A stretch of 64,000 nt of DNA from Candidatus Krumholzibacteriota bacterium. GTDB lineage: Bacteria; Krumholzibacteriota; Krumholzibacteriia; JAJRXK01. A program made the position numbers and the translations under genes. Position 1 is the stretch's first letter, and every line of letters begins with the position of its first letter. Below, piece after piece: positions 1 to 51,731 of the stretch. The notes beneath the pieces were generated by a model. The model worked only from the letters and a program-made list of their open reading frames with translations, was not told the DNA's origin and did not search any database. The DNA lies in NCBI GenBank assembly GCA_963764625.1, contig CAVXTH010000009.1, positions 928,001 through 992,000 on the forward strand, given 5' to 3'.

Positions 1-27
1 GGTTTCCTTTGCGCGGCTCCGCCTCCC

Positions 28-43
28 GGGCACAGTCATTGCT
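28..43 (+). promoter_or_regulatory. Putative sigma-54 (-24/-12) promoter of the giant surface-protein operon
   Basis: GGGCACAGTCATTGCT: GG(29-30)-N10-GC(41-42) with GGCAC and TTGC cores, 35 nt before ATG 79. Confidence 0.65.
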
Positions 44-78
44 TTCCAAGTTCTTGATCCACAGACACTTGGGTTGCG

Positions 79-3000
79 ATGAACACTATGCCGAGGCTAC
101 TGACCTTCCTTCATGATCGTCTCGGGGTTTCGAGACGGGTCTGCCTGCTCGTCAGCGCGGCAGTCGTGTGCCTGCTTGCGCCGCGAGCCGCTCTGGCCGT
201 GACCGGCGTCAACGTGATCTCCACCGATTCGACGGTGGCGGCCACTACTACGTACCAGATCGATTTTTCCACACGAGACCGACCGCGAGAGCGGCTCCTC
301 GGTTCGGATCGAGCTTTCCGTCCGGCTTCGATCTGAGCGCAGTGGCGCTTGGCGCGATCACCGGCTTTGCCGGAGGAACCCTCGACCTAAGCACGGAACA
401 ACAGACGGTGATCCTCACCTTGGCGGATTCGTCCGCCACGGCGGGGCCCAAGACGGTGACTCTCCTTGCCGTCGGGCAGCCCACCACGGCCGGTTCCTAC
501 AGCGTGAGCGTGGAGCTTCGCGACAGCGGCGACGGCGTGGTCGAGGTCGCGACCGCGTCTTCACCTTTCCTTTTGACCGCGCGAGCTCCGGTCGCGCTGC
601 AACTGCAAGCGAGTTCCTCTTGGGTCATTGCGGGGGACGACTTGCCGCTCCGCGTGACGAGCGTCGACTCCTTCGGCAATTCCTCACCGGTCGCTTCGGG
701 TCAGATCCTCGATCTTCTGAGCGACAACTCCTCCGGAAGCTATCGCCTGTTCGTGGGCGGGCCCGCCGTGACGTCGGCCAGTCTGGCCGCCGACTCCTCC
801 GGGGTGGATCTGTTTTACCGTGCCACGCAGGTCGCGTCGGGTTCAATCGGACTCACCGTCGTCGACGGTGCGCCCTCGGCTCCCGATTTGGGGTTCGCTC
901 AGGCTTCGGTCACTCTGCTTCCGTCTCAGGTGGATTCCCAGCGGAGCTCGGTGACCGCGACTTCCCCGGTGGTGGCGGACGGCAGCGACGTTTCCGCGGT
1001 GACCCTCGTCCTCCGGGATGAATTCGGGAACATTCTGGCCGGCGTCGACAGCTCGCGGATTTCCGCTTCCCTCGATGCTCCTTCCTTCGCGGTGGTCAAA
1101 TTGAGCGCCGCCACCGCAGCCGATGGGAGCTTTCCTCTGCGTCTTTCCAGTTTGTTCGCCGGAAGCTGGACCCTGCAGGTGACGGTGGACGCCTCGACTC
1201 TCGCTGACCAGCCTCTACTCGAATACACGGTGCGTCCGATCGACGGCACGCAGTCCACCATGAGCGCCGGACCGGCGGGGATCGCCGACGGGAGCGACAG
1301 CATCGAGGTGGATCTGCAGCTTCGCGACACCAACGGCCTCGCAGTCTCGGCGGTGGACTCCGCGTCGATCGTGTTCACCGTCCTGGGAGACGGTCTGGCC
1401 CTCGAGAAACTGGCCCCGAGTTCCGCACTCGACGGCTCGTTCACCGCTCTTCTGCGCACCACCCTGGCGTCGACACGCCGGCTGGCGGTCACGGTCGGGG
1501 GCGTCGCGCTGAGCGATACCCTCCAGCTCGATTTCCTCGCCGGACCCGTCGATCCCGATCGCTCGTCGGTCGCTCTCAGCGGTCCGGCCCTGGCCGACGG
1601 CGTGGACTTCGTGACCCTCGACACCACCCTGCGTGACGCCTACGACAATCCGATCGCGGACTTGGACAGCGCCCAGATCGCGATCAGCGCCAGCGCGGTG
1701 TCGGTGGAGAAGACGGCCTCGTCCACCGCCCTCGACGGCAGCTTCTCGGCTCGCTTGCGCTCGACCGGTGCGGGCGCGCGACCGGTCAACGTGACCGCGG
1801 CGGGGATTCCACTCAGCGCGCAGCCGTCTGCGGTGTTCAACGCAGCTGGCCCCGACTCCACGCACAGCAGCCTGGTGGCAAATTCCTTCGCGGTGGCGGA
1901 TGGAGTCGACACCATCGATTTGGTCCTCACGCTGAGGGACGCCTTCGACAACCCCGTCGCCGGGGTCGATTCGGCACGCATCGACTTCGCGATTCCCTCT
2001 CCGTGGCAGCTTACGAAACTGGACGCCAGCACCGATGCAGCCGGAGAGTTTCACGCCAGCCTGCGTTCCCTTTTGGCCGGTACCGGCCAGGTGCAAGCAC
2101 GGCTCGACGGGGCTGCACTGGGATCCTCCCTGATGCTCCAATTCGTGTCCGGTCCTCTGGATCATTTCGCGGTAAATCTTCCCGGCGGGAGTAGCGCGAT
2201 CGCGGGAGTGCCTCTCGCGCTGGAGATCCTGGCGCTCGATTCCACCGGAAATCGCCTCACCGGCTACGGCGGAACCATGCACGTGCAGAGCACGAGTTCC
2301 GGCAGTGGAAGTAATCTGAACTGGGCAAGCAGCGGCGCCGGCACCCTCACTTCCTTGCCCGCCGGCGAGGCCGATTACTCCTTCGCCCCGGTGGATTCAG
2401 GACGCGTCGTTCTGCAGTTCCAAGACACTCTGGCCGAGAGTTTGAGCGTGATCGTGAGTGATGCTTCTGCCAGCGGAAGCGCCGGACTCGTGATTCTCCC
2501 CGCCGCCGCCAGTGCTCTCGAACTGGTCGACGGGGACGGACAGAGCGCGACCGTGGGCACGAACGTGGCTCAACCGTTGCGGACGCGCGCAGTCGACGCC
2601 TTCGGAAATCCGGTGAGCGGAGCCATGGTCGAATTCGCTGCCGCCGACGGCGGGCGCGTGGATGTCGATCCAGTTCTGCCGGGGGATCAGACCACCTCCC
2701 TCAGCGATTCGCTCGGGATCGCAGCTTGCCCTGTCTGGCAGTTGGGACCGGTGGCGGGACCGCAGAGCCTGTCGACCATGACTTCATTCGCGCCCCCTTT
2801 GACCTTCGACGCGACCGCGATCGCGGGGGCGGTGAGTACTCTCGTCCTTGCGCCCACGGGTCCCAGAAGCCTGCAGGTGAACGCGCTGGAAACCGTGGCC
2901 GCCTTGGCCTCCGATTCCTTCGGGAATCCGGTTTCCGGAGTCGAGGTCTCGATCTTCGTGAGCGATGCGCTCGACGGTACTCTCGCCTCGGTGGGCGAAA

Positions 3001-6000
3001 CGGACTCCCTGGGCATCGCCTCCCAACGCGGGTTGACGGGCGCCGACGGCCTCGTCCACGTGCTCTATCGTGCTCCCTCGGTCGCCGGACTCCAGGACGT
3101 CCTCGACGCGGCCGCAAGTGGCATTCCCTCGGGTACGGTCGCCGACCTCATCTACACCTCGGTGGTCGGCAACCCGGTGGCCCTTGCCCTGTCGCTCCCC
3201 TCCGGCGGAGTGACCGCCGGGGTAGAGGGAAGCTTCAGCCTGGCGCTGGTGGACACCTTCGCAAACCTCACCCCGGCTGCTTCGGCCACAGTGACGGTTC
3301 ACGCGGATCCCGCGACGGGGCTGGGCTTTTCCTCCGTCAGCGGAGGGCCGTACCTCGACACCCTGAACCTCCCGGTCACCGGCCAGGCTACCGTGTATTT
3401 CCAGGGGGGGCCGGCCGGAATCCATGCGTTCGCGGTTAGCGACTCCGCCTCGGTCTTACTGGGGGACGCGGGGAACCTGGAAATTCTGGCCAGCGCCACC
3501 GTGGCCACCTACCAGCTCAGCTACCCCTCCACCGCGACGGCGGGGACTGTGTTCAGTCTCAATGCTGAGGCCTTTGACGCCTTCGGAAATCCGGCCGTCG
3601 CCGCTGCCGACAGCTTCACGCTCGATCTCGTCGACGGTGCCGACAGCACGCTCGTCGTGCCGCTTCCGCTCGGAGTCAGCGCTGGGCAACTGGTGCAGGG
3701 GAGCTACTCGACCTCGTTTGAGCGAATCAATCAGGCCGGCGCTTTCCGTATTCGTCTGAATGCGAAGGGAAGCGGATTCACTGGACCACTCTTGAGCGTG
3801 AGTCCGGCCGGCGCGTACGAATTGGTCACGGTGGGGCCGGACAGTCTCTCCCAGATCACGGCGGGGTCCTCGGTAGATCTGACCGTCGAAGTTCTGGATG
3901 CCTGGGGAAATGCGGTCAGCGGTGAGACTCTGAACGTCGTGCAGCTCGTGGGTGGGGTTCTGGAGTCGAGTCCCCCGCTTAGCTCCGGTGCCGGTCTCGC
4001 CACCTTCACCCTGCGCACGAACGCGATCGTGGGCACCGCGCGGCTGCGGATCTCGATCCTGGATGGCACCCCGACAGGAAGGGAGACCGCGCTCTTTTTG
4101 GTGGAGACGGTTGCGGGTCCCATCGCCTCGCTCAGTGTGAATCCCTCGCTGACGAACGTGACGGCGGGGCAGAGTTTTTCGTTCTCGGTCACTGCTCTCG
4201 ATGGCGCGGGCAATCAGGTGCTCGCGGCCGCGGATTCGCTTCAATTGAGTGACACGGGTACCGGGGTGAGTTTGAGTCCCGTGAGCGGTCCTCTGAGCGC
4301 GGGTCTCTTCACTTCCAGCGCGCGTGACACTCTGAGCGAAGTCTTTTCCATCGGAGCCGCTCTGAAATCGCAGCCGGCGATCAACACCCAGAGCCCACCC
4401 ATCACGGTGGGTCCGGGAGCGGCCATGCGCCTGGTGGCCGTGGGAGACACGCTCCAGACCGCCGCCGCCTCAAGCGATGTGATTCTTCACGCCCGCGTGG
4501 TCGACGCGTACGGCAACCCCGTTCCTTCGGTGCCGGTACACTTGAGTCTCTCGAGCAGCCCTCAAGGAGCGTCGATCGAAGATCCGGATCCTCCCGCTGA
4601 CGACGGCCTTGCTTCGACCGATAGCAACGGGGAACTCGCGTTCGTTCTCCACCTCTCCGCGCTGAGCGGGGATCATCGAGTGAAGGCGTCGATCCTCGAT
4701 GGACTTCCCGCCGATCTGGAGACGGTTCGTTGGACGGTACAGGGTACGCCAGGTTCGGCCAACCACCTCGAGTTCACCATCGCCGACAGCGTGCTCACCG
4801 CGGGCATCGCGACCCAGCTCGAGATTCGCGCCAAGGACTCGGCCGGAAACGATGTCGATGTCAGCGGCGAGCTCGCATTCGTCTCGGTTCCCGCCGGAGT
4901 CAGCGTTCAACCCTCCCCGGCGTCCTTGGCGAACGGAAGCGCCACCGTCGCTCTGAGCGCGTTTGTGGCGGGACCGCTCGCGATCGACGTCTCGCTGACG
5001 GCTTCTCCCTCCGTTGCCGGCAGTCTGAGCGGACTCGCCGTGGTTGCGGCCGCACCCTCGGGAACCATCGCGGTACCGGTGATCGATCCGCCGGCGAACA
5101 CGGCGAACGGACTATCGGTGACACGCCTGAACGCGGGCCCGATTCGGGACGCCTTCTCAAATCTGGTCGCCCTCGGTACCGCGGTCGACGTGGCCGCGAG
5201 CGGTGGCACGATCATCTCCGACGATCTCGATCCCGCGCTCAACGGGATCCAGAGACTCACGGATGCTTCCGGCATGGTGGACCTCCGACTCGTATCTCCT
5301 CTCAGCGCGGGCACGGTCAACGTGTCCTTCGTCTCGGGGAGCGCCACCGGAAGCGCGGACGCGACTTTCGAGGCTCGGGCCTCTCTCTCCGCCGATGGCG
5401 CACTCGCGCCCGGGGCGGCCGTGCCCGGCCAGGCCATCAACTTCTCGATCTCCTTCGCGAACGCGGGCGGAGTCGACGCGATTCTGGATGCCGCTCTTTC
5501 TGAACTGCGAATCGAGGACGGGCAGGGGGGGGTCCTCACCGCTCCGCTTCTCAGTGACACCGTGGTCGGGGCTTCTTCCACCCAGACGCTCGTCTTTGCC
5601 ACCGCGACCCTTCCCGCAAGCTTCGCGCTGGGGGGGTTCCGGCCCACTCTCACCCTCATGGGGCAGGACTCCCACTCTCAGGCCGTCTCCGCGTTCGTCG
5701 TGCTCCCGCAGGGCTCCTTCCTGGTCAGTGCTCTGGCCCTGCGCGGGGTGGCTCACGAGACACAGGCGGCCGCGGGCGACACTCTCCACCTTCGGGTTTC
5801 GGTGGAGAACATCGGCGCCGGAGCGGTGGAAATCTCCCAGCTCGCGGTGCAATCGTCCCCAGCGGGAGACTTCAGTTTGGTCGGACAGGATCCACTTCCG
5901 GTGCTCGCGGCCGGAAGTCAGACCGACCTGCTCTCCCGCTGGTTGGTGGGAAGTGCGACTGCGCCGGGAAGCTATCGCTTCGTGGCTCGCGTCACCGGGA

Positions 6001-9000
6001 GAGTCGCGGGCGTGGACTTCGCGGCTCCGGTCGATTCATCCGCCGTAGCTCTGGTGGTGAGCTCCGCATCTAGCCTGGAACTGGTCGCAGGAAGCGTGAG
6101 TCCCGCTCTCATTCATCACGGAGCCACGCTTTTGTTGAAGGTGAGAGTGAAGAACAACGGCGGCGCCACGGTGGCCCTGAATCCGCAGACTTCCTCGGCC
6201 AGCTTCGGAGGCGGGCTCTGGAGCGGCGCCTTGACCGCGCCCACGGCCCTGGCTCCCGGTCAAGAGGCGGAATTGAGCTTCGGACCCACCACCGTCGATG
6301 CGGCTCTGGGCAGCCAGAGCCACGATCTTCGGCTCCACCTCGAGGGCACCGAGAACAGCTTCGCCTTCCAGGCGGATCTGCTCGCCGCCACCGCGATCGC
6401 CACCCAGACCCCGGCTGATCTGGCTCTGCAGACTCCGGCTCTCGATCCGGCGGCGGCTCTGCGCGGCTCCGTGGTCGGCTTTACCCTCGCGCTGCAGAAT
6501 CTGGGGGAAGCAGAGGTGGAGCTCGATCCCCTGGCCACGCGGCTTGCGCTCGGTGAGCCGGGGGGACAGAGGATCAGCGCGTTGCTTTCCGCCAGCTCGG
6601 ATCAGGCCGTCTCCACCGGTGCACATCAGCTGGTCTTCTCCTCGCTGAATCTCCCGGCGGATCTCACCTTGGGCACCCCAGAAGGCACCCTCGAGCTCAG
6701 GGGCACCCAAAACGGTCTGCCTTACTCCCTCAATCTCGCCCTGCCGATCGGGACCCTGTTCCTGCAGGATCCATCGGGACTGAGAATCTTCTCCACCGTG
6801 GCGTTGAATCCCAGAGTTCCGCGGCCTGAAGTCGACACTGGGCAGCTCATCCCGGTGCGCGTGGTGGTGGGCAACAACGCCGGGGAGGCGATCGATTCGC
6901 TCACGGTACGGCTCACCGGGAGCGCGGCGCCGGCCTCCGCCGCGGCGGACATCTTGATTCCGCGGCTTCAGTCCAGCGAGGTCGACACTCTCATCTTCCC
7001 CACGACCCTCACCTCGAGCCCGGGACCGGAATCACTCAGGGCGTCGATCGTGCGCGCGCTGTCCTCGACCACCGGCCAACTGGTCGTCCCGCAGAGCCCG
7101 CTGGATGATTTGGCGAACCTCGTGGTCCAATCACCGGTCTCCCTCGCCTTCGAGGCGGCACTGGAGGAGAGCACCGATCCTCTTTCGATGCGGGTCACGC
7201 CCGGCCAGATCTTCTCCGTCCGGATCGCGATCGTCCCGGATACCTCGGTGGAAAGTTCGGGTACCTGGCTGCCGGTCGATGTCGACCTCAGCGGTCTGCA
7301 GGGGTTCAGCTTGAATCCTCCCAGCAGTCTGCCGGTTCAGCTCGATCCCAACAATCCCGAGGCTTCGATCGAACTCGTGGCGCCCTCGACCGCGCAGACC
7401 GTCGATCTCCTGGCTGCTCTGTCCCGCGTCGACCTGGATGCCAACGATCCCGATGCCCGCCCTCTGACCACCGCCTCCAGTCGCTCGCTGCAAGTCGAGG
7501 TCTTCGGCGGTGGCTCTTTCGATCTCTGCGGCCTGAGCATCGTGACGCCACAAGGAGCTCTCGACGGGGTCGTGAGCACGGGGCAGCGAATCACTCTGGA
7601 AGGCGAAGTCGATGGACCTTCCAACCTGGAGCAACGCGCCCTCGAGTTGCTTCTTCCGCCCCAGCTGGCCCTGGTGGGGGGAACCGCGTTGCAGCCGCTG
7701 GCCGACGGGCAGACCAAAGTGAGTTGGGAGTTGCTCTGTCCCGAGACTCCGATCTCCGGACTGGTTCTGCGCACCGTAGCGCACGCCACCGACGTCCAGA
7801 GCGGCAGCGTGCTGGCCGATACTTGCGCCACTGCGAGTCTGGATATCGTGCAAGCGGCGCGAGCGGCCCCGCGCTTGAGCGTGCTCGAGCCGAACAGCGC
7901 GCGCGACCGGGGTGAGCTTCCGCCGGGCGCGGTCGTCGAACTCCGCGGGGAGTTCGCTCTTTCGGGAAGTGCGGGCGTCACCGGTCCGGCGCGCCTGCAT
8001 CTGGAAGTGCCGGCGGGCTTCACCATCCTCGACGGCCAAGCGGCCAGCATCGATCTCGGCGATCCGAGCGATCAGATCCTCTGGCGGGTCCAGGGTCCCA
8101 CAGAGCCTGGATTTGGGAGTGCAGCAGCTTCGATTGACGGCGGAGCAGATGCCGCGGGACGAGAACAGCGGCCTTGTGGCCGGGAATCCCGCGGATTCGA
8201 GCTCGGTATCACTCTCGATCCTGGCCGATCCCCTGCGCGTGCAGGTCAGCGATCTTCCGGGCACCGGCCCGCTGGTCGGGAGTGATCGCATGTATGAACG
8301 CTTCGCCCTGAACCTGAGAAACAGTCATCCCGAAGCGGTTCACTTCACGTCTCTCACCTTGAGCATCGTGGACGATGCCGGCAACAGCTTCGCGGATCCT
8401 TCGGCATTTCTGCAGACGGTTCAGCTGCGCCGTACGGACGGCAGTGGAAGCTGGAGCGCCTCGGTTGGCTCGAATCCAGTGAGCATTTCAGTCGATCTCG
8501 TTCTCGACTCGGACACCTCGGCTGCGTTCAATCTGGGGGTTCAGGCCAAACCCGACGCCGCATACGTGTCCTTTGCTTTCGTGATCGACGGCAGCAGCGC
8601 TTCGATCGAGGACACGGGTGGATTCAATCTGAGCTACGCCCTGCTCGACGCAAAGGGCAATGGTCTGCCGAGCATCGTCGCCGGCGCGAGCGTCACCGCG
8701 GTCTTGTCCGACCGGCTCGACGCGCACAGCTATCCCAACCCCTTCGTTCCCAGCCGCGAGCCAGCGACGCTCTCGTATTCGCTTCCCCAGAGCGCTCCGG
8801 TGGAGATTGAGATCTTCGATCTCTTGGGAAAGAGAGTTCGTTCGTGGAGTTTCGCGGAGGGGCAAACCGAGAGCGAGGCCGGCGTCCACGACGGCGACGT
8901 GGTATGGGACGGCCGAAACGGCCTGGGTCAGGACGTGCGCAACGGAGTGTATGTGTGCCGGGTGCGCGCGGCGGGAGAGGAAGTCTTCTTCAGAATCGCG

Positions 9001-9012
9001 GTGACCCGATGA
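79..9012 (+). CDS. Giant (~2,975 aa) invasin/intimin-type Ig-repeat surface protein with signal peptide and C-terminal FlgD-Ig/T9SS-like sorting domain; split by frameshifts at ~270-315 and ~8112
   Basis: Joins ORFs 79..336 (signal peptide ...LLAPRAALA-VTGV), 168..8285 (Ala/Ser/Gly/Val-rich beta repeats, more than ten Dx[FY]GN-like motifs) and the 3' part of 7912..9012 (SYPNPF...IFDLLGKRVRSW...WDGRNGLGQDVRNGVY). Confidence 0.8.
925..2150 (+). repeat. Four tandem Big_1/invasin-like Ig repeats (~101-103 aa) inside the giant protein
   Basis: ADGxD motif codons start at 975, 1284, 1593 and 1896 (periods 309, 309, 303 nt), each followed by LRD-x-x-[GD]-[NL] and a DG-S-F/GEF motif. Confidence 0.8.
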
Positions 9013-11030
9013 TGGTCCACCGCGCGCAAGTTGTGTCCACCGCGACGTCCTCTTTGCATCCCGTGAGAGCAAAGGAGACACGGCAGCGTCTCGCGCGGTG
9101 GTTCGTGTTCTTGCTGTGCGTCTTCTGCTCCGTTCCGTCCTCGTTCGCGGCCGATGATGGCGGCGGGACGGAGTCGATCTTCAAGCTGGGGCCCACCGCG
9201 CGAGGCGTGGGCTTGGGCTCGGCGATGGTGGGTTTGGCTTTCGATGCGAGCGCTCCCTACTGGAATCCCGCTCTCCTGCCGCACGCCCGCGGCTCGGAGC
9301 TCACTTTCAGTTACAACCGCCTGTACGGCCAGGCCGGGGGCGCTTCCTACGGGTACCTCGGACTCGCCTATCCGACTCTGAACGCGGGAGGATTCGGGAT
9401 CGGGATTCTCCGTCTCAAGCTGGGGGAGATAGAGACCTACGACACCAGCAGTCGTCCCACCGGAACCATCGACTACGGCGAGACACAGCTTCTTCTGAGC
9501 TACGGATATGGAGGCAGGCTCCCGTATGTGGGCGGCCGGCTCGATCTGGGATTGAGCGCGAAGATCCACAGCCTGGATCTCGCCGAAAAGAGCACCAGCG
9601 GCGGGATGGACCTGGGGCTGGCCTGGACCGTACCCCGTCTTTCCGGCACGCGACTCTGCTTTGTCTACCAAAATCTGATCGCACCGAGCTTCCGTCTGAT
9701 CGAACGCGAGGACAAGCTTCCCTCCACCAAGAGGTTCGCGCTGTCCAAGCGTCACGAATTCAACCCGAGCACGAGTGTGGAAGTGGCTGCGGTCTACGAC
9801 AGTCCCCAATACGCGGACCACCGGGTGGGTCTGGGAGCGGAAGCCGAGTACCTCGACCTGTACACCCTTCGGCTCAGTTACGACGACGGACATTTCAATG
9901 CCGGCCTCGGTGGGCGCTGGCGCGATTATGCCCTGGACTATGCTTTCCGTTCGGGAGGGGAGTTGGGCTCTTCACAGTTTTTGAGTCTGTCGTGGTACTT
10001 CGGAGAAGACATCGAGGATCGACGCTCGGGCCAAGCAGAGCTGCGCGCGCAGGAGCTCGCGCAGGCCAGGTTGGAAGCGGTGGAGATCTGGCGCAAGGAC
10101 CAGATCCACGGCGCGGTCGAGGACTTCCGCACCGCGCTGGATCAAGAATCACTCGAAGCGGCCGAGGCGGGTCTGGCCCGGGCGCGAAGTCTCGGAGCGG
10201 CCGAGGATTCGCTTGCCTCGGACCTGCGGCGATTGCAGGAGTTGAAGCAACGAAAACAGCGGATCCGTGACGATGAGCAGCGTCGTACTCTCCGGATCGA
10301 GGACACCGAGACCCAACTAGAAGCCGCCCTGCGCCAGGGGGACGCACAACGCGCGCGTACCGAGCTGAATCTACTCGCGAAGCTGGCCGCGGATCATCCA
10401 ATGCTGCCTCGCTTCGTCCAGCAGGTGGAGGATCTCGAGGCAGGCTCGATCGCCTCGGCCTCATCGGAGGCCACCGCGGCGGAGGAGGCGGGTGATTGGG
10501 AATCGGCCCTCAACGCCTGGAGCGTCGTCGCCTCCCTGGATCCCAGCAATCCCGCCCCGGCTGCGGCCCTGAAGCGCTGGAAGGCGGAACTCGACGCGGC
10601 TCGCAACCAGAGCAACCGCGCAGAGACGGATGCGGCGCGGGCCCGCCGCGAGTTGGCCCAGGAAAAACGCTTCAGCTCCGCGCTGCAGGAGTTCGCGCAG
10701 GGCAAATTGGATGAGGCCGAGACCCTGTGCCGCCAAGTCTTGACAGTCGAGCCGGGCCACTCGGGGGCGAAAGGACTTCTGAATCAGATCGCGCACCGCC
10801 GGTCGGGTCCGTCGAATCTGAGCCCACAGCAACAGCAGCAAGTGCGGGCCTACTATCTCTCGGGTCTTCGATCCTTCACCGACGGCGACTACGCGGCGGC
10901 GATCGTCCAGTGGCGCCGCATCCTCACGATCGATCCCGGGAACCAGGGCGCACAGAACAACATCGCGGAGGCGCAAGCGCGCATCGAGCGTCTCGAGGCA
11001 AACCCGGGCGCGAAGGATGAACAGAAGTGA
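9009..11030 (+). CDS. PorV/UPF0164-like outer-membrane beta-barrel fused to a C-terminal coiled-coil/TPR region
   Basis: ATGA overlap with the upstream stop; signal peptide; PorV-type N-terminus GPTARGVGLGSA...DASAPYWNPALL; barrel ends near LSLSWYFG; TPR-like repeats (GDYAAAIVQWRRILTIDPGNQGA). Confidence 0.75.
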   Translation: MMVHRAQVVSTATSSLHPVRAKETRQRLARWFVFLLCVFCSVPSSFAADDGGGTESIFKLGPTARGVGLGSAMVGLAFDASAPYWNPALLPHARGSELTFSYNRLYGQAGGASYGYLGLAYPTLNAGGFGIGILRLKLGEIETYDTSSRPTGTIDYGETQLLLSYGYGGRLPYVGGRLDLGLSAKIHSLDLAEKSTSGGMDLGLAWTVPRLSGTRLCFVYQNLIAPSFRLIEREDKLPSTKRFALSKRHEFNPSTSVEVAAVYDSPQYADHRVGLGAEAEYLDLYTLRLSYDDGHFNAGLGGRWRDYALDYAFRSGGELGSSQFLSLSWYFGEDIEDRRSGQAELRAQELAQARLEAVEIWRKDQIHGAVEDFRTALDQESLEAAEAGLARARSLGAAEDSLASDLRRLQELKQRKQRIRDDEQRRTLRIEDTETQLEAALRQGDAQRARTELNLLAKLAADHPMLPRFVQQVEDLEAGSIASASSEATAAEEAGDWESALNAWSVVASLDPSNPAPAAALKRWKAELDAARNQSNRAETDAARARRELAQEKRFSSALQEFAQGKLDEAETLCRQVLTVEPGHSGAKGLLNQIAHRRSGPSNLSPQQQQQVRAYYLSGLRSFTDGDYAAAIVQWRRILTIDPGNQGAQNNIAEAQARIERLEANPGAKDEQK

Positions 11031-13549
11031 TCGGTAGCCGAGTGAAGAAGGCCGAGCTTGTGATCGAGGCCCGGGAGAGTCACTTGGCTCAGGTGCGCGA
11101 TTTTATCGCCCGCATCTGCATGCAGGCCGGGTTCGACGCCGCCGACATCGCCAACTTCAAGCTCGCAGTCGATGAGGCCTGTACCAACATCATTCAGCAT
11201 TCCTATTGCAACCAGGGCGGAGAGATCAGCATCCGGGTGAAGTTCTTTGCCGGTCAGGTCGAGATCATCCTTCAGGACGAAGGAGAGTCCTTCGACTTCG
11301 GATCGGTGGCGGTTCCGGACCTCGATCATTACGTGGCCATCGGCAAGCGTGGTGGGCTCGGGATCTATCTCATCAATCGGATCATGGATGAGGTGGAGTA
11401 CGCGACCGTCGGCGGGACCAACCAGCTCAGAATGCGCATGGATCGGCGTCCCTCGATCGATCGCTGGATCCCGGGAATCCAATTTTCTGCCTTGCACCGG
11501 AGTTTGCGCATGCGGTTCACCCTGCGCGCATCCTTTGGTTTGGCGCTCCTGGTCGTTCTCGCTCTCTCGGTCGTCCACTATCGCCAGCGGCAAGCGATCT
11601 TCGATCAGGATCTCAGCCGGGTCGAGGCGGTGGCGCGCGACTTGGCGGTGCAGTCCCGAAGCGTGCTTGCCAGCAGTGATCCGTATTCGGTGGAGAGGAC
11701 GCTTCTGGAGCAGAGCGTCAGCGAGCTCTCCCGTCACGATTCCACCATTGCTTTCGCGCGCGTCGTGCACGGGACGGACGGCAGCATCTGGGCCGACAGC
11801 AACCTGGACAATCTCTTCAGATCCTGGCAGCCCGAACCGGGCCGGCTGATCAACCACGGCCAGGGGGTGGGAGAGTGGACACGAGTCCAGTTCGACACGG
11901 GAGCGGTTCTGCAGTTGAACTTTCCGGTGAACATGACTGCCCCCACCGGCAAGACCGTGGAACTCGGACGAGTCGTGGTGGGTCTGAGCACCTCGCAACT
12001 GGAGCGTGGCTATCGCTCGGCGCTCCTGCATGCCATGGGAATCGGGTTCATCATTTTGCTGGTGGGAATCCTCCTCATCCTGGTGATGGTGAATCTGTTC
12101 GTCCGACCCATCCAGCAGCTCACCGATGGGGTTCTCGCCATCGGTGACGGTGTGTTGGAGGAGGACATCGAAGTCCATGGGCCCGAGGAGATCTCGACCA
12201 TTGCCGCGGCGTTTAACGAGATCGCCGCCAAGTTCCGCCACGCGCAGTCCCATCTCGTCGAGCAGGAACGTCTGCAAAAGGAAATGCAGCTCGCGCGGGA
12301 GATTCAGCACACCTTGCTCCCCACCACGATGCCTGAACTCTCGGGCTTCGAGATCGCCGCGATGTACCGGGCGGCGGCGGAAGTTGGTGGCGACTACTAC
12401 GACTTTTTCGCGGTGGACGAGGATACCATCGGGATCGTGGTGGCCGACGTGTCGGGAAAGGGAATCCCCGGCAGCTTGGTCATGACCATGATCCGGACCG
12501 CGATGCGCATGGAGGCCAGGGGAAATCACTCGGCCAGCGACGTGCTGAGTCGCGTGAACACCTTCATCACCGAGGACATGCGACGAGGCATGTTCATCAC
12601 CCTGTTCTATATCATTCTCGATTCGCGCAATCGCGTGATCAGCTACTCCTCGGCCGGCCACAATCCCATGCTGCTGTATCGCATCGAGACCGACGAGGTT
12701 TTCTTCCTGAATCCGGCCGGCTTCCCGGTGGGGATTTCGCTGCCCGATCCCGAGTTGTTCTCCAAGACGATCGAGGTGGAACGGGTCCAGTTGCAACAGG
12801 ACGACCTGCTCTTGATCTACACCGACGGGGTGACGGAGGCGATGAACGCGGCACGGGAGCAGTATGGCGAGCAGCGCCTCATCGATTGCGTGCGCAAGAA
12901 CGCGGGCCGGACCGCGGAGGAGTTCATCGCCGCGTTCAACGAGGACATCGCGGCCTTCACTGGCGGCAACGCCCAGAACGACGACATCACCGCAGTCGCG
13001 GTGAAGGAGAAGATGCGTCCGGCCTCTCTGGAGATCGAGCGGCGGCAGCAACTTCTGGACATGGTGGAGCTTGAGGAAATGCCGATCGAGGACGCCTGCC
13101 GGGCCTACGGCACCTCCGTCTCCACTTACTACCGCTGGAGGCGTCTGAAGGAGATGGGTGGGGAAGAGGCTCTGGCCGGCCGGGCGGTCCAGTCCGGATT
13201 GCGCCGGCTCACCGTGGAGGGAAGAGAAGCGTTGGTGGGGTTGGTGCGGACGGATCCGAGCCTAGGTGCCAAGCGCCTGGCCGATCGGCTCTGTGGCTTG
13301 GGTCACGAAGCCAGTGCAAAACTCGTCTACGATGAACTCCTCCGCCTCGACCTGAACAACGAGACCAAGCGGCGCCTCTACTTGCGCCGCCGAGGTTTGA
13401 ACCCGAAAGAGCCCGATTCCCGCCTCAATGGATCCGAGGGATCCCACGGCTTGGACCAAAGCTTGCACGGGGAAAACCAGAGATCACCGGGGGAGGGAGG
13501 GCCGGAAACGCCTTCGCTCGACCCGGAAGACATAAAGTCTCATAACTAG
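11027..13549 (+). CDS. Membrane partner-switching fusion: RsbW-type HATPase kinase - TM - periplasmic domain - TM - HAMP - SpoIIE/PP2C phosphatase - C-terminal HTH
   Basis: LAVDEACTNIIQHSY, DEGESFD, GGLGIYLI (RsbW boxes); two hydrophobic helices; RPIQQLTDG (HAMP); VGGDYYD, ADVSGKG, AGHNP, YTDGVTEA, DDIT (SpoIIE); IEDACRAYGTSVSTYYRWRR (HTH). Confidence 0.9.
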   Translation: MIGSRVKKAELVIEARESHLAQVRDFIARICMQAGFDAADIANFKLAVDEACTNIIQHSYCNQGGEISIRVKFFAGQVEIILQDEGESFDFGSVAVPDLDHYVAIGKRGGLGIYLINRIMDEVEYATVGGTNQLRMRMDRRPSIDRWIPGIQFSALHRSLRMRFTLRASFGLALLVVLALSVVHYRQRQAIFDQDLSRVEAVARDLAVQSRSVLASSDPYSVERTLLEQSVSELSRHDSTIAFARVVHGTDGSIWADSNLDNLFRSWQPEPGRLINHGQGVGEWTRVQFDTGAVLQLNFPVNMTAPTGKTVELGRVVVGLSTSQLERGYRSALLHAMGIGFIILLVGILLILVMVNLFVRPIQQLTDGVLAIGDGVLEEDIEVHGPEEISTIAAAFNEIAAKFRHAQSHLVEQERLQKEMQLAREIQHTLLPTTMPELSGFEIAAMYRAAAEVGGDYYDFFAVDEDTIGIVVADVSGKGIPGSLVMTMIRTAMRMEARGNHSASDVLSRVNTFITEDMRRGMFITLFYIILDSRNRVISYSSAGHNPMLLYRIETDEVFFLNPAGFPVGISLPDPELFSKTIEVERVQLQQDDLLLIYTDGVTEAMNAAREQYGEQRLIDCVRKNAGRTAEEFIAAFNEDIAAFTGGNAQNDDITAVAVKEKMRPASLEIERRQQLLDMVELEEMPIEDACRAYGTSVSTYYRWRRLKEMGGEEALAGRAVQSGLRRLTVEGREALVGLVRTDPSLGAKRLADRLCGLGHEASAKLVYDELLRLDLNNETKRRLYLRRRGLNPKEPDSRLNGSEGSHGLDQSLHGENQRSPGEGGPETPSLDPEDIKSHN

Positions 13550-13605
13550 TGAACTTACAATGGGTTCACTGGCGTAGTTCAAGTAGAGAAAGAGATGGGC
13601 TTTCG

Positions 13606-13965
13606 ATGGATGGGATCATGGTCATTTCGAAGGCGCACGAATCCTGCCCGGAGCAGCAAGTACTCGAGGTGGCAGGCTACATCGACACGACCACTTCGGC
13701 CGAGTTCGAACGGGAGATAAAGTCCCTGATTCAATCGAAGCGCTACAAGATCGTCGTGGACCTGTCGAGGGTCTCCTATATCTCCTCGGCTGGCTGGGGG
13801 ATCTTCATCAGTGTCATTCGCGAGATCCGGGAGAACGGTGGCGACTTGAGGCTGGTCGGAATGGTTCCCGACGTCTACGAGGTGTTTGAACTGCTCGAGT
13901 TCCAGAACATCCTCGAGGCTTTCGCCACGGTGGAAGAGGCGGTGGGCGCTTCGGCAGCCACCTAG
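13606..13965 (+). CDS. STAS-domain anti-sigma-factor antagonist (RsbV/SpoIIAA family)
   Basis: GYIDTTTS...VDLSRVSYISSAGWGIFI with conserved phosphoacceptor Ser; ATG 13606 preferred over GTG 13549. Confidence 0.9.
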   Translation: MDGIMVISKAHESCPEQQVLEVAGYIDTTTSAEFEREIKSLIQSKRYKIVVDLSRVSYISSAGWGIFISVIREIRENGGDLRLVGMVPDVYEVFELLEFQNILEAFATVEEAVGASAAT

Positions 13966-13990
13966 AATGCCGATCGATCCGAAATTCGAT

Positions 13991-14023
13991 AGCGCCGGCG
14001 CCTGACGCCGGCGCTTTTTGTTT
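13991..14023 (+). terminator. Rho-independent terminator closing the 79-13965 operon
   Basis: 10-bp stem AGCGCCGGCG/CGCCGGCGCT, loop CCTGA, followed by TTTTGTTT. Confidence 0.85.
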
Positions 14024-14179
14024 ATGGGTGGCGAAGCCGAGCGGATCGTTCTTAGAGTATGCAGCGAGCCCTCCACGGACATGTCCGTTCTCGCCGCGGG
14101 TGATCTCGCCATGATCGAGCGACGGCGGGAGATTCTGCTCGACCTCTTACGAGAGCCTCCCCGGAGAATTGGATTCGCG

Positions 14180-16415
14180 GTGACCCTCTCAAGTTCTTTC
14201 CTTCCCCTGGCGAAACTGAGTGTCTGGCCGGACGGACTGGCGGACTGGACCCTCGTCACGATCCTTCTGGTCGTCGGACTCTTCGTGGCGTATTTCGCCT
14301 ACCACCGCACCCAACCCGCGCTCGAGAGGTCGAAGCGGTGGACTCTGCGGCTCTTGCGCGCGAGCGCGCTCCTCTTGCTCCTCTTTCTCATCCTCGAACC
14401 GATACTTTTCACCAAGCACAGTAAGGTGCTTCCTCCTTCGGTTCTCTTGCTCGTCGACGACAGCGGCAGCATGAACCTGCAAAACCACGATGGGCGAACG
14501 CGTCTACAGCAAGCCCGGCAGGAGGCGGAGTTCGCGCAGAGGGGACTCGAGTCGCGGCACGAAAAGCCCCAGCTTCTCGTGGCCGAGGGTGCGCGTCGTC
14601 TACGCCGTGCTCCCAACTCGGGACAGTCCGAGGGAACCAATCTGCCCGCTCTCCTGTTGTCCGCCGCGCAATCCCATCTGGAGGACAACCTCCAGGCGAT
14701 TCTGCTCCTGAGCGACGGCAGAAGCACGGATCCCGATCTGCCCTCGCTTCGCGGTCTGCAGCTTCCCGTTTTCACTCTGGCCGTCGGGGACAGCAACGGT
14801 CCGGGGGATCTCCGGCTCGATCGAGTGCACTACCCCACGGTTGCCTACCGGGGTGAGACGATCGAGGTCACGGCCGAAGCGGTGGTGGAGGCGAGTGACG
14901 CGGGGCATAGCCGCGCCATCCTCGAGAGTGGCGCGAGCGCCGACACTGTCAGCTTCTCCTGGCCCCGAGGGGGCGGGAGAATCCCTCTGAGCTTCCAGGT
15001 GCGAGCGGACAGCTTGGGAATGCTGCGTCGCACACTGCGGCTGACTCCCCTCAAAGCGGAAGCACTGCTCGAGAACAACGCCATCGAGATCGGGGTGGAG
15101 GTCTTGAAGGATCGCCTGCACGTTCTTCTCCTCGAGTCGCGACCGAGCTGGGATTTCCATTTCTTGCGACGTCGTCTGGCCGAGGACCCTCGCTTCGAGG
15201 TCCAGGGAGTCTACCGCGGGGTGAACGGGTGGCAGGTCGCGGGAAGTGACAGTTCCTGGACACCGCCCGTGGACGCGGCCGCCGCGTCGGGAGTCGATGC
15301 CTGGGTCTTTGCCTCGCTGGAGGACTTCGCGGAATTGAGTGAGAGAGCGCCGGGGAGTGGGAGCTTCGGTGAAAGCCGGAGCCGGTCTCTTCGTCCTCCT
15401 CGGCGAGGCACACGGCCAGCCGCTCCCTTCGCTTCCGAGCGCCGCCGATGAGCTCCTGCCGCTTCGTCTCTCCCCTTCCGCGCATTGGGAGCGGGCACGC
15501 CATCGGGTGGATCTCCTTCCGGCGGGGGTCAGCCATCCCATCTTCGCCTTTCCCGCCTCGGTGGGAGATGCGGCCACGCGTCTCGCGCAGATGCCGCCCC
15601 TGTGGGACGCGGTCCACGGCCTCAGCCCCAAGCCCGACGCCGATGTGCTCCTGCAGGCCCAGGGACCAAAGAGCACGACGCCTTTACTCGTCCTCGGTCG
15701 CGAAGAGAACGGCACCGTCGCGACGTGGTCGGCGTCGCCGTTGTGGAGTTGGTCGTTTTGGCGACTGGGCAGTCGGGAAGGAGAGGACGTCTACCGGGCC
15801 CTCGTGGGCAACCTCATCTACTTCTTGGCCGAGGGCGCCAGCCGTGACCGTCTGCAGCTCATTCTGCCGCGTCCAGTCGTGGCCAGAGGCGAGGACGCGC
15901 TCCTGCGCGCGGTGGTTCTCGATTCGCGCCGCCAGCCCGACGAGTCCAGTGATCTCTGGATCGAGTGGAGGAAGGAGCTGGCATCTACCTCCGATTCGAA
16001 CGAAGCCGTGTTGGGTCGAGCTCTCATGCAACCCTCGCCGCAGGGACCCGCCGGGGGAAGACAGCTCGCGATTCCTCCTCTGCCTCCGGACCACTACCAA
16101 TTCCGCCTCGCACTCGAAGAGAGCTCGGGCCGCATCGTCTCTCCCTGGAGCTCGCTGACCGTCGATCCCTATTCGGTGGAATACCGGCGGCCCGGTGTCG
16201 ACTACGCCCAACTGACCTCCATCGCTCGAGCCACCGGGGGCCGCGAATTGACCATGGACGAACTGGGTGCGTGGGCCCGCGATTTGCCCCTGAGTTCGAA
16301 GATCAAAGAGAGCCGAGGGCGCACCGCCCTCTGGGCCAGTTTCAAGCTCTTCTTCCCCTTCCTGTTGCTCTTGAGTCTGGAGTGGATGCTGCGGCGCCGA
16401 TGGGGACTCGTCTGA
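14180..16415 (+). CDS. Membrane-anchored VWA-domain protein with Ig-like and GATase-like regions; frameshift at ~15352
   Basis: Two N-terminal TMs; MIDAS elements DDSGSM, GTNL, LLSDG; C-terminal TM ending LSLEWMLRRRWGLV; joins ORFs 14018..15451 and 15339..16415 at a G4 run; start uncertain. Confidence 0.75.
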
Positions 16416-16493
16416 TCCGAGCTTCTCCGTAGAGCCGCCCGTTCCTGCGGACCCTTCCCCCTCATCGCCTCCACCACGCGAGTCTCCCGGGAG

Positions 16494-18131
16494 GTGCGGC
16501 CAGTGGCACGCATTCTCGGAGTCCTCCTGTTTCTACTTTTGCCCGCCGACGCGCTGGCGCAACTCGTCTTGAACGAAGTTCTCTACGACCCGGCGGGCAG
16601 TGACGGAGGCAAGGAGTTCGTCGAACTCTACGCGCGCGGCGAAAGCGCGCTCTCTCTGGACGGAATCCGGCTCCTCTTCGTCAACGGCGCGGCGCCCGAG
16701 CAACCCAGCGAGATCTGGACGGCTCCGGCGGGACTCACGCTATTGCCCGGCGAGTTCTTCGTGATCGGAGGTAGCGAGGTTCTTCCGCGTGACGTCGAGG
16801 CGACCCTGAGTTTGCAGAACGGTCCGGACGCTCTGTGGTTGGCGCGCGGGGAACAGGTCTTGGACCGGCTGGCCTGGGGCGAACTCGAGGGCCTCGGCGA
16901 AGGTGCGCCCGCGCCGGACGTCGCCAGCGAGAGTCTGGGCCGCATTCCCGACGGGCACGATCTGGACGACAACGCAGCGGATTTCCATCCTCTGAGTCCT
17001 CCGTCTCCCGGACTTCCCAACGCGTCCGAAACGAGCTTGCACCTCTTGAGATTCGAGGCCACCCCGGCCTTCGCGCCCCTGCCGGCCGCGGTCACGATCG
17101 AACTGATCGCCGAGGCCGATGGATTTGCTCCGCAGCAGGAATTCTCGCTGCGTTGGAGACTGGACGATGCTCCCCTCGATCAGATGGTGCTTGGCGTCGC
17201 CGCAAAGGACAGCTTGCGAAGCCGCGTGGAGGCATGGATGACGCGCGGGCGCCACCTCGTCGAAGTGAGCTGGGGCTCCGACTCCTCCTCCGTCGCGCGG
17301 ATGGGCTATCAGGTGGGGCCGGGATCGGTCCTGCTCAACGAAGTCATGGCAAAGCCCCGGGCAGGTCATCCCGAGTGGATCGAGCTGAAGCAGGGAATCG
17401 GGGCTCCCGAGTTCCTGGACGGTTGGGAAATCACGGACGCGACCGAGAGCTGGAAAGGGCTCGACGGACTCGGCTTCTCCCCCGACGGGTTCGCGCTCTT
17501 GAGCTCGGACCCCGACGCGATGCGTTCGATCTTCTCCCTCTCGTCGAAGCTCCCGATCATCACCCCTTCGGGCGGTTGGCCTTCGCTCAACAACACCCAG
17601 ACCAAGGGCAGCCCCTTCGCCGACCAGATTCTCTTGCGCGACGCAAGCGGCACCGTCGTCGACCAGCTCGCATACGGCGAAGATCTCATCGCGGACGCCG
17701 GTCGGAGCATGGAGCGCGGCATCGTCAGTTTCGATTCTCCCCGCGCCTGGTTCATCTCGCCCGGTGAGCCCAGTCCCGGCCGGGAGAACGCCGCCGCCGC
17801 GCTCGACACCCCGGCCCAGGGCTTGGCGCTCGAGCCCAACCCCTTCAGTCCCGACGGAGATGGCGAGGGCGACGTCTTGCACGTGCTGCTCCACGCGGAT
17901 CTGACCGGACTGACCGTGCAGGCCGAGGTCCGCGATCTCTTGGGCTCCAAAGTGATCGAGCTGGGCAGCGAGGAGGCGGGAGGAGATCTCCGCCAGTGGC
18001 TGTGGGACGGTCGCGCCGCCAACGGACAGCGCGTTCCCATGGGAGCCTACGTCGTGGTGGTGCAAAGCGAGGGCGGGCAGCACGCGCCGCGGCGCTGGAC
18101 CGCGCTGGTGGCCTTGGGGCGGCGACGATGA
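16494..18131 (+). CDS. Secreted protein with two lamin-tail domains and a C-terminal FlgD/type-B-CTD-like sorting domain
   Basis: Signal peptide (ALA-QLV); LVLNEVLYDP...EFVELY and LLNEVMAKP...EWIELK; C-terminal PNPFSPDGDGEGD...WDGRAANGQRVPMGAYVV. Confidence 0.8.
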   Translation: MRPVARILGVLLFLLLPADALAQLVLNEVLYDPAGSDGGKEFVELYARGESALSLDGIRLLFVNGAAPEQPSEIWTAPAGLTLLPGEFFVIGGSEVLPRDVEATLSLQNGPDALWLARGEQVLDRLAWGELEGLGEGAPAPDVASESLGRIPDGHDLDDNAADFHPLSPPSPGLPNASETSLHLLRFEATPAFAPLPAAVTIELIAEADGFAPQQEFSLRWRLDDAPLDQMVLGVAAKDSLRSRVEAWMTRGRHLVEVSWGSDSSSVARMGYQVGPGSVLLNEVMAKPRAGHPEWIELKQGIGAPEFLDGWEITDATESWKGLDGLGFSPDGFALLSSDPDAMRSIFSLSSKLPIITPSGGWPSLNNTQTKGSPFADQILLRDASGTVVDQLAYGEDLIADAGRSMERGIVSFDSPRAWFISPGEPSPGRENAAAALDTPAQGLALEPNPFSPDGDGEGDVLHVLLHADLTGLTVQAEVRDLLGSKVIELGSEEAGGDLRQWLWDGRAANGQRVPMGAYVVVVQSEGGQHAPRRWTALVALGRRR

Positions 18132-28128: not shown

Positions 28129-28888
28129 ATGGGCCCGCGAGCTGGCAAGTCCGGCCATGAGATGACGATGTTCGAGCACATCGCGGAGCTCAGAAAGACC
28201 ATACTCTGGGCTTTCGGCATGGCTCTCGTCGCCACCATCGTCGCCTGGTTCTTCAGCGATCAGATTGTGAACGGGCTGCTCGGACCGGCCCGTAAAGCGG
28301 GGCAGGAGAGTCTTTACTTCACTGCTCCCATGGAGGCCTTTCTGCTCAAGCTGAAAGCCTCCACCGCGGTGGGACTCTTCCTGGTGCTTCCGCTTCATGC
28401 TCCTTAAAATCTATAGCTTCGTCACGCCCGGCTTACGCCCTCGTGAAAAACGAGTCGTGACTCCAATGTTGTTGACGGCGACTGGATTATTCTACGTGGG
28501 AGTCGCCTTTTGTTTTTTCATCCTCTTGCCCTTGGTAATCCGCTTTGCGGTCGGTTTCGCGACGGAACAGCTGCAACCTCTCCTCACGGCGCGCGAATAC
28601 TTCGATCTGGCGGTAAGGCTCTGTCTGGCGTTTGGGCTGCTCTTCGAGCTGCCGATGGTGGTCCTGGCCCTCTCCTGGGCCGGCGTGGTGCATCCCAGAA
28701 TGTTGCTCAGAGGCTGGCGCTACGCTCTCATCGCCATCCTGGCCGTCTCGGCGATCTTGACCCCTCCCGACGTGATCAGTCAGGTGATGCTGGCCGGTCC
28801 GGTCATGCTTCTCTACATGGGCAGTGTGATCGTGGCGCTGGTCATCCGCAGGCGCAAGGACCGTAACTCGGCCGACATTGACAGCTAG
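28129..28888 (+). CDS. tatC: Twin-arginine translocase subunit TatC; frameshift at ~28395
   Basis: EHIAELRK, TAPMEAF, FVTPGLRPREK, FGLLFELP, AILTPPDVISQ across ORFs 28129..28407 and 28397..28888. Confidence 0.93.
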
Positions 28889-49440: not shown

Positions 49441-49456
49441 TGGCACCATCCTTGCT
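49441..49456 (+). promoter_or_regulatory. Consensus sigma-54 site adjoining a sigma-70 -35 element
   Basis: TGGCACCATCCTTGCT matches TGGCAC-N5-TTGCW; its last T is the first base of TTGACA (49456-49461). Confidence 0.75.
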
Positions 49457-51720: not shown

Positions 51721-51731
51721 GAGGCTATCGC

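Follow-up and report, generated by a model that had tools for sequence, protein, structure and literature searches.

In Flavobacterium johnsoniae, type IX secretion system (T9SS) cargo is encoded beside a cognate PorP/SprF shuttle, for example SprB-SprF (PMC12618676), and in Porphyromonas gingivalis the C-terminal domain of a T9SS cargo signals to an inner-membrane sensor kinase in the PorA-PorY-PorX-SigP pathway (PMC12152298). Cargo-shuttle pairs and partner switches have each been well studied and have so far been unlinked. The two were found joined in one four-gene cassette in a 64,000 nucleotide stretch of DNA from a Candidatus Krumholzibacteriota bacterium (contig CAVXTH010000009.1; C9:928001-992000), which is referred to here, at its full length, as the window. 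The cassette encoded, in this order and all on the + strand, a giant surface protein, a PorV-like barrel with a long tail, a sensor containing both a kinase and a phosphatase domain, and a STAS protein. That it is a sigma-54-driven, envelope-spanning signalling cassette whose switch reads the tail of the barrel is, in our judgement, an evenly balanced proposition.

Gene 1 (79-9012) and gene 2 (9009-11030) overlapped by the sequence ATGA at 9009-9012, and gene 2 and gene 3 (11027-13549) by GTGA at 11027-11030, both as read from the sequence. A promoter, a terminator, the four same-strand genes and these overlaps had been listed in an initial annotation of the window and were all present where it had placed them; its domain calls for the four genes also matched the Pfam and NCBIfam results. 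The annotation was nevertheless confirmed in part, as it had not reported the frame shifts in gene 1 or the helix-turn-helix (HTH) module and Cache domain of the sensor. The source genome (3.57 Mb in 9 contigs, 96% complete, approximately 62% G+C) contained a single copy of the cassette, with kinase, Cache, HTH and tail queries each matching the window locus alone. Contigs 95-99% like the window were found in salt-marsh metagenome runs from three studies; the 16 runs listed included no RNA data set.

A search of 41 genomes of the class with gene 2 returned full-length relatives, and 20 loci around them were fetched (families f2 and f6 were covered by the match table only). An unchanged order of barrel, tail, kinase, HAMP-PP2C and STAS was seen in 18 of the 20 loci, which came from 17 genomes and 6 of the 8 families sampled. 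Upstream DNA was available for 16 of those loci, and every one of the 16 encoded the sorting domain of the giant protein. Between families the HAMP-PP2C region shared approximately 65% identity, the barrel approximately 32% and the Cache domain approximately 28%.

A phylum-wide survey, using a profile of the sensor against one genome per species, returned at least 620 confirmed relatives, and the best 80 loci were analysed. According to their record titles these belonged to Krumholzibacteriota, Eisenbacteria, Latescibacterota, FCPU426, KSB1 and Calditrichota (loci labelled Caldithrix among them), with a few other labels. Among these 80 loci the barrel was found in 65 of the 66 with at least 2.8 kb of upstream DNA, as was the sorting domain (65/66), and STAS was found in 70 of the 72 with at least 1.5 kb downstream; barrel, sorting domain and STAS were all present in 58 of the 60 loci with both flanks. 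The exceptions were counted as misses: L063 gave no barrel match by tblastn yet had the tail and the sorting domain, and L097 and L104 gave no STAS match. The conserved four-gene synteny that the initial annotation had put forward as a check was therefore strongly borne out. The cassette is locked together in hundreds of genomes of at least six mostly uncultured phyla, Krumholzibacteriota and five or more further candidate phyla of the FCB group, which implies a shared function.

The genes of the barrel and the sensor were also tightly linked. In the 87 loci with both barrel and kinase matches, the tail was at least 298 amino acids long in 74, and the stop codon of the barrel gene lay 40 nt or less from the position aligned to sensor residue 1 in 72. 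Additionally, one genome (G033, locus L032) encoded a paralogous cassette consisting of a giant protein, a barrel with PorV and tetratricopeptide repeat (TPR) parts, a sensor with the permuted order HAMP-SpoIIE-HATPase_c_2, and STAS. The set of tailed PorV barrel, kinase, phosphatase and STAS therefore exists in two forms.

The surface protein and the PorV-like barrel

Gene 1 encoded a protein of approximately 2,950 amino acids once frame shifts were allowed for, as judged from Pfam matches, orthologues and frameshift-aware alignments. It contained immunoglobulin (Ig)-like repeats (Pfam Big_1, 1.6e-45; Invasin_D3, 7.9e-40) and weak CARDB-like repeats. Its C-terminus (8731-9009) matched FlgD_ig (28.2 bits, cut-off 27) and the T9SS type A sorting domain TIGR04183 (24.6 bits, cut-off 23), with Pfam Por_Secre_tail scoring 17.8 against a cut-off of 27, and this domain extended right up to the stop codon. 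At the N-terminus, in frame 1, a signal-like hydrophobic stretch with ALA at its end was seen by eye. The protein thus had both a signal-like start and, at its extreme C-terminus, a sorting domain above the cut-off, as expected of T9SS type A cargo. Orthologues of gene 1 in five other genomes (G001-G005) were single open reading frames (ORFs) of 2,857-3,214 amino acids from stop to stop. The Ig-like domain nearest the signal peptide (255-573 in the window) was shared by the window, G004 and G001 but missing in the orthologues of G002 and G003, so that the surface protein varies at its N-terminal tip within the genus. The repeats and the sorting domain of the giant adhesin described in the initial annotation were thus upheld. 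The annotation had missed the three +1 shifts that interrupt gene 1 in this sequence.

Gene 1 ran in frame 1 from 79 to approximately 280, then in frame 2, in frame 3 (approximately 315-8103) and again in frame 1 (8104-9012). Frameshift-aware alignment to the G004, G001 and G003 orthologues placed the three single-base +1 shifts at 274-283, 311-316 and 8103/8104. The frame 3 part was an open frame of 2,722 amino acids (117-8285), and the last 300 amino acids lay back in frame 1. Read at face value, these shifts would make gene 1 a true pseudogene in a cassette that is decaying in this strain, with the other genes being relics or reused, and the contigs listed for two runs (X1 and X2) start only at positions 345 and 323, so that their coverage excludes the two N-terminal sites (274-316). 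Several observations argue against decay and make it very unlikely in our view. Outside the shift sites the alignment to the orthologues was free of gaps over 2,515 amino acids and contained no stop codons. The same type of +1 shift split 11 of 92 long ORFs relative to G002 and G003 of the same genus, a denominator that takes in some shadow ORFs, and SprA, the PorU-like gene and TatC were each in pieces in separate open frames. A 774 amino acid gene downstream of the cassette was also split, at approximately 15354. All of the shifts examined went one way, pointing to an insertion error of a systematic kind. In three other public runs, contigs from near relatives 95-99% alike dropped one letter at 8104 and another at 15352. 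Because the same kind of +1 shift occurred genome-wide and the contigs of the three runs lacked the extra letter at 8104, the shifts in gene 1 are very probably assembly errors, and gene 1 was treated as functional.

Further shift sites were seen in the window at 28355-28404 and approximately 45750, and in a CTP synthase the match to the N-terminal Pfam domain was without model positions 1 to 159.

Gene 2 encoded a 673 amino acid outer-membrane protein that resembled the PorV/PorQ family and carried a signal peptide. Against the family model NF033709 (PorV_fam) it scored 85.8 bits (E 3.9e-24; model positions 7-324 of 326; cut-off 90). All 21 of its aligned relatives matched the PorV_fam (E <= 0.001, best 1.7e-35), PorQ and PorV2 models, 14 of them matched the PorV model and 7 the PorP/SprF model. 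An AlphaFold2 model (mean predicted local distance difference test, pLDDT, of 80.9) placed 14 strands at amino acids 96-331 (approximately 9294-10001), with a pLDDT mostly of 85-96 in the barrel. Foldseek ranked PorV chains highest by target TM-score (6h3i_F, 0.65; 8gl6_F, 0.60), followed by FadL, TodX and related channels at 0.38-0.49, and a profile of the gene 2 alignment against the PDB matched PorV (4.7e-9) and no other barrel. The PorV-like barrel that the initial annotation had proposed was therefore borne out by family model, PDB profile and fold.

After the barrel, the model predicted a tail of approximately 330 amino acids (335-664; approximately 10011-11000) made up of long helices, coiled-coil and TPR-like pairs. 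In even-stranded outer-membrane barrels the established topology puts a tail on the side of the termini into the periplasm, and for this reason the tail of gene 2 should be periplasmic.

SprA was encoded on the same strand as the cassette at C9:993505-1000012, approximately 1.5 kb beyond the end of the window, and pieces of a PorU-like gene adjoined a high-scoring canonical PorV at C6:500978-505505. Of SprA and the other T9SS core genes that the initial annotation had suggested looking for, SprA and a PorU-PorV pair are thus encoded in the genome. A self-built hidden Markov model (HMM) of the C-terminal sorting domain, run on the whole genome, matched 94 ORFs. Six of the 13 PorV-family matches directly followed a gene with a sorting domain, so that cargo genes accompanied by a PorV-like barrel of their own recur in this genome. 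Besides the cassette, such pairs were located at C9:306527-310595, C9:89428-92763/88392-89312, C9:890889-894085, C9:1054748-1056431 and C4:50127-52154, which suggests many dedicated cargo-barrel pairs. Among these barrels, that of the cassette was the only one with a tail and a switch. Members of the PorV/PorQ family bind cargo that has a sorting domain and act together with PorU and the SprA translocon; for gene 2, what bears on this is the genomic context, SprA and the PorU pieces beside a PorV. The GldL and GldM models gave no match in the genome, but in the same searches they matched in none of 14 control genomes; the GldK model gave a weak match (89 bits, cut-off 350).

The sensor, the STAS protein and the barrel tail

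Gene 3 encoded an inner-membrane sensor of 840 amino acids, delineated by Pfam, NCBIfam, a structural model, Foldseek and PDB profiles. An RsbW-type serine kinase (amino acids 13-137) was followed by a first transmembrane segment (TM1, approximately 165-187), a single-Cache domain (approximately 188-333), a second transmembrane segment, HAMP (354-402), a PP2C/SpoIIE phosphatase (465-660), a bipartite HTH module (668-790) and a disordered tail. The Pfam matches were HATPase_c_2 (9.4e-28), SpoIIE (4.6e-48) and, on the C-terminal side, HTH_23, HTH_28 and HTH_32. Among solved structures the kinase domain was nearest to RsbW (profile 8.1e-24; target TM-score 0.89-0.92) and SpoIIAB, and the phosphatase to SpoIIE, SiaA, RssB and Rv1364c. 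An alignment of 19 sequences from six families showed the kinase motifs DEACTN, DxG and GGxG, which we take to be those that bind ATP, to be invariant. The same was true of aspartates D456, D459, D474, D600, D652 and D653 in the PP2C motifs GGDYYD, ADVSGKG, YTDG and DD (19 sequences), which presumably bind metal. The catalytic machinery of the sensor therefore looks intact as far as can be read from its residues.

The STAS protein, of the anti-sigma-factor-antagonist type, was encoded at 13606-13965 (STAS, 8e-21; TIGR00377, 68.1 bits, cut-off 53.45). Its start was either the ATG at 13606, after a purine-rich stretch, or a GTG at 13549, which shares one base with the TAG stop codon of the sensor (13547-13549). 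The motif YISSAGWG began at residue 58, numbered from the ATG at 13606. In an alignment of 171 STAS sequences, of which the single-copy and triple-form groups were tabulated, both serines of Y[IV]SS[AG]GWG were kept in 59 of 59 single-copy relatives, and the second serine was kept in 14 of 14 sequences at each of the three fused STAS positions. We take the conserved serine to be the phospho-acceptor site known from SpoIIAA and RsbV. In other families the sensor ORF ran on through two or three STAS domains, with examples of 1,455, 1,477 and 1,277 amino acids, and among the 72 loci of the phylum-wide survey that had sufficient downstream sequence, 15 had their STAS matches inside the sensor ORF. 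As STAS is fused to the sensor in these loci, the kinase, phosphatase and STAS work together. The locus thus appears to encode an RsbW-type kinase, a PP2C phosphatase and a STAS protein with an acceptor serine, the parts of a partner switch other than the sigma factor or similar target.

The transposase-type, bipartite HTH module was present in all 19 orthologues, and 11 of the 19 also gave weak Sigma70_r4_2 matches on it (best E 0.0015). This in-cis module is the only visible candidate for an output. One could speculate that it binds DNA while tethered to the membrane, or that it is itself the partner held by the RsbW-like domain.

The part of the sensor between the membrane segments matched sCache_3_2 in 12 of the 19 orthologues (best E 2.3e-7), and its model (pLDDT 84-91) had the layout of a Cache domain, in which a sheet of six strands comes after a long helix. 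A sensor with kinase, phosphatase and a periplasmic domain had been described correctly by the initial annotation, which missed the identity of this domain and the HTH module.

The structure of a complex between the barrel tail (gene 2, amino acids 335-673) and the periplasmic part of the sensor (amino acids 183-332) was predicted from our own alignment of each partner, for which reason the benchmark counts are rough. The score was 0.47 (the median of 0.50, 0.46 and 0.47), and the best of three controls scored 0.01. The three runs shared at least 85% of their contacts, with a pLDDT of at least 78 for the partner. Of 157 solved complexes, 116 reached the pass mark used, as did 2 of 215 mismatched pairs; passes with a score of 0.60 or lower comprised 18 of the 157 solved complexes and both of the mismatched pairs, so that such a pass counts only where the prior is good and would otherwise be wrong in more cases than not. 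Here the prior is decent, because of the strict co-conservation and coupling of the two genes. A direct contact between the tail and the Cache domain is, on this model, close to an even prospect and if anything a little short of one. The contact between TPR tail and sensor that the initial annotation had envisaged accordingly obtained a weak pass, and its interpretation as a whole was supported in part.

These parts could work together as follows. Gene 2 would be a PorV-family barrel dedicated to the surface protein as its shuttle or anchor, and the helical/TPR tail of approximately 330 amino acids would hang into the periplasm. Gene 3 would be an inner-membrane enzyme with an opposed RsbW-type kinase and PP2C phosphatase on either side of a Cache and HAMP transmitter, and the STAS protein of gene 4 would be the substrate of both. 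The Cache domain would read the state of the barrel tail, as set by cargo that is bound, unloaded or under load, and HAMP would then tip the balance between kinase and phosphatase. Phosphorylation of the STAS serine would decide whether STAS binds the kinase domain, and that binding would free or block the C-terminal HTH of the sensor or another target. As already suggested in the initial annotation, the barrel may hold the adhesin, and the phosphorylation state of STAS may report export or surface contact. In its fullest form this amounts to signalling across the envelope, in which a barrel holding a giant T9SS fibre rests a helical arm of approximately 330 amino acids on the Cache domain of a one-protein switch uniting kinase, phosphatase, DNA-binding module and, for many lineages, STAS too, and load or pull leads through serine phosphorylation to release of a membrane-tethered HTH. 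We put this forward tentatively, and would sooner expect it to fail in some part than to hold throughout.

Single-Cache folds like that of the periplasmic domain mostly bind small ligands in other sensors, and a regulator that senses a ligand beside a cargo-shuttle pair therefore has to be weighed. Here the Cache domain would bind a small molecule, for instance a nutrient or a signal, the switch would regulate through the HTH how the surface protein is expressed or used, and the barrel would export or anchor its cargo without touching the sensor. The sCache_3_2 matches and the modelled Cache layout fit this account, as does the conservation of the HTH in all 19 orthologues, and a regulator beside its target operon is a common arrangement. 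What such a regulator would leave unexplained is the constant tail of approximately 300 amino acids and the abutment or overlap of the barrel and sensor genes across six phyla. The sensor with permuted domains, too, has a PorV-TPR barrel as its partner, and the tail-Cache prediction beat its controls, albeit weakly. We therefore regard ligand sensing without tail contact as unlikely, with a real but minor chance of being correct.

The sorting domain of the giant protein could instead be the periplasmic ligand of the sensor, either before export or after cleavage, and report a backlog of secretion, while the tail has another role, such as docking to the T9SS or to peptidoglycan. There is a precedent in P. 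gingivalis, where the C-terminal domain of PorA binds PorY in the periplasm and activates PorXY-SigP (PMC12152298), and 65 of 66 loci kept the sorting domain together with the sensor. Such cargo sensing leaves the universal tail and the tight coupling of barrel and sensor unexplained, and we consider it distinctly improbable.

Several points weigh against a switch that reads the barrel tail. The tail-Cache contact obtained a weak pass in a computational prediction, and the periplasmic domain matches sCache_3_2 in 12 of 19 orthologues, a fold that in other sensors usually binds small molecules. The cassette encodes no sigma factor or other obvious target of STAS, and no sigma factor gene was found in 1-22000. 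The barrel in the window falls just below the PorV_fam cut-off (85.8 against 90), and, given the results for GldK, GldL and GldM, the type of T9SS that the organism possesses is incompletely defined. As it stands, gene 1 is frame-shifted, with two N-terminal shift sites outside the listed contigs. Finally, the 80 loci of the phylum-wide survey were selected because they resemble the sensor, and the synteny counts draw on related genomes, which are no independent samples.

Transcription signals and neighbouring genes

A sigma-54-type -24/-12 promoter element, GGGCACAGTCATTGCT, was located at 28-43 (+ strand) by pattern match and positional conservation. The pattern GGCAC-N5-TTGC, here at 29-42, occurred twice in the window against 0.43 expected (4 of 100 shuffles reached 2), and the 16-letter sigma-54 consensus, with one mismatch or none, had 133 sites in the 7.1 million positions of the genome. 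The element lay exactly 51 nt 5' of the ATG in 4 of 4 loci of the same genus, and similar elements were found upstream of the orthologue in G005 (-132), G021 (-110) and G013. Additionally, rpoN was encoded within the window (51684-53150). A sigma-54 promoter was taken to require GG and GC 10 bases apart in TGGCAC-N5-TTGCW, a conserved position and rpoN in the genome; all three were found for 28-43, which is accordingly a probable sigma-54 promoter on the evidence of its letters. A scan of 1-15000 for promoters of the sigma-70 type returned 0 sites against 1.2 expected, an uninformative outcome.

An alignment of the upstream regions of five same-genus sequences showed that the block from the -24 element to the ATG was the sole conserved part of an otherwise diverged intergenic DNA. 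Between promoter and start codon this comprised a conserved leader (44-78), within which CCAAGT (46-51) and ACTTGG (67-72) formed a 6 bp inverted repeat with 15 nt between its arms (7 bp in G001). This repeat might serve as an operator or fold into a hairpin in the RNA. At the other end the cassette was closed by an intrinsic terminator (13991-14025), the stem of which (13991-14015) had 10 bp, 9 of them G-C pairs, and was followed by a T run. Among the 12 terminator-like sites of 1-15000 it ranked first in strength.

The second exact match to GGCAC-N5-TTGC in the window was at 49442-49455, just 3' of a SIS-CBS gene and approximately 860 nt ahead of a string of genes encoding lptC, an ABC ATPase, rpoN, hpf and hprK.

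Downstream of the cassette, the gene at 14006-16412 encoded the 774 amino acid membrane protein mentioned above, which had a weak motif resembling vWA and the metal ion-dependent adhesion site (MIDAS) and matched no Pfam family above its cut-off; it was followed by a gene for a lamin-tail-domain (LTD) protein (16416-18128). Of 100 loci searched, 20 had the 774 amino acid gene beside the cassette and 10 had the LTD gene, a recurrence seen in some phyla. Both genes were left outside the cassette because they are positioned past the terminator.

In other families, a ParA-like ATPase of approximately 250 amino acids was encoded directly 3' of the sensor-STAS gene in 5 of 9 loci (L020:16758-17498, L021:16392-17141, L027:16820-17578, L029:16317-17054 and L030:7978-8721). 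It was followed by a conserved protein of an unknown family and, in G021, also by a free STAS with 50% identity to that of the window. This set was absent from the cassette locus in the genus of the window, where the nearest ParA relative was 34% identical and located at C8:171.3k.

Comparison with described systems

The initial annotation knew of no described system with this composition, and a literature search agreed. No description of the cassette was found among the best-ranked matches of the literature searched, which did not extend to subscription journals, so that its absence from print is not proven. In the listed publications where partner switching and type IX secretion occurred together this was incidental, through entries of reference lists and, in one of them, also through unrelated passages on regulation by extracytoplasmic function (ECF) sigma factors.

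Like SprB-SprF, the cassette places the gene of a large T9SS adhesin beside that of its own barrel, and 7 of the 21 gene 2 relatives matched PorP/SprF models. It differs in that its sorting domain is of type A/FlgD_ig and not type B, its barrel is closest to PorV/PorQ and has a predicted periplasmic tail of approximately 330 amino acids, and a kinase/phosphatase sensor and STAS always follow. With PorV (LptO), as seen in the SprA-PorV complexes 6H3I and 8GL6, gene 2 shares a 14-strand FadL-type barrel and its best target TM-scores. Nevertheless, the two have only approximately 16-17% identity, the copy in the window is 4 bits below the family cut-off, a canonical PorV is encoded elsewhere in the genome, next to PorU, and the tail has no counterpart in solved PorV chains (345-402 residues).

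In both PorA-PorY and the present cassette a T9SS cargo is, or would be, wired through the periplasm to an inner-membrane sensor. PorA-PorY does so with a two-component system and an ECF sigma factor, and its ligand is the C-terminal domain of the cargo, whereas the cassette encodes a partner-switch enzyme, with the tailed barrel as the candidate link.

An RsbW-type kinase and a PP2C phosphatase also act on STAS from within one polypeptide in SypE-SypA of Vibrio fischeri, HsbR-HsbA of Pseudomonas and Rv1364c of Mycobacterium tuberculosis (PDB 3KE6). As in the fused forms described here, Rv1364c has STAS within the same protein. The sensor of the cassette differs from all three in lying in the membrane, with its kinase before TM1, in having Cache, HAMP and HTH domains, and in being accompanied by one to three copies of STAS. 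SypE, HsbR and Rv1364c are reportedly cytoplasmic and receive their input from REC or PAS domains. In SiaA/SiaB/SiaC of Pseudomonas aeruginosa (PDB 6K4E), a membrane HAMP-PP2C protein likewise opposes a kinase on a small substrate and controls surface behaviour, and SiaA is a neighbour of the sensor in sequence and fold. There, SiaB is a separate kinase of another type, and no T9SS cargo or barrel is involved. The output of the Sia proteins is said to be a diguanylate cyclase.

In FecA-FecR-FecI cell-surface signalling, an outer-membrane barrel with a periplasmic extension informs an inner-membrane regulator. A TonB-dependent transducer, an anti-sigma factor and an ECF sigma factor are all missing from the cassette, and the resemblance is one of logic only. 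What is new here is the combination, a tailed PorV barrel together with the architecture of the sensor; the parts are of known kinds. The HTH module is a candidate for a new output of partner switches. If the arm does talk to the sensor, the cassette would provide an inward route for information on the surface or on secretion, similar in logic to TonB-dependent cell-surface signalling, and would be the first partner switch with an input at the outer membrane.

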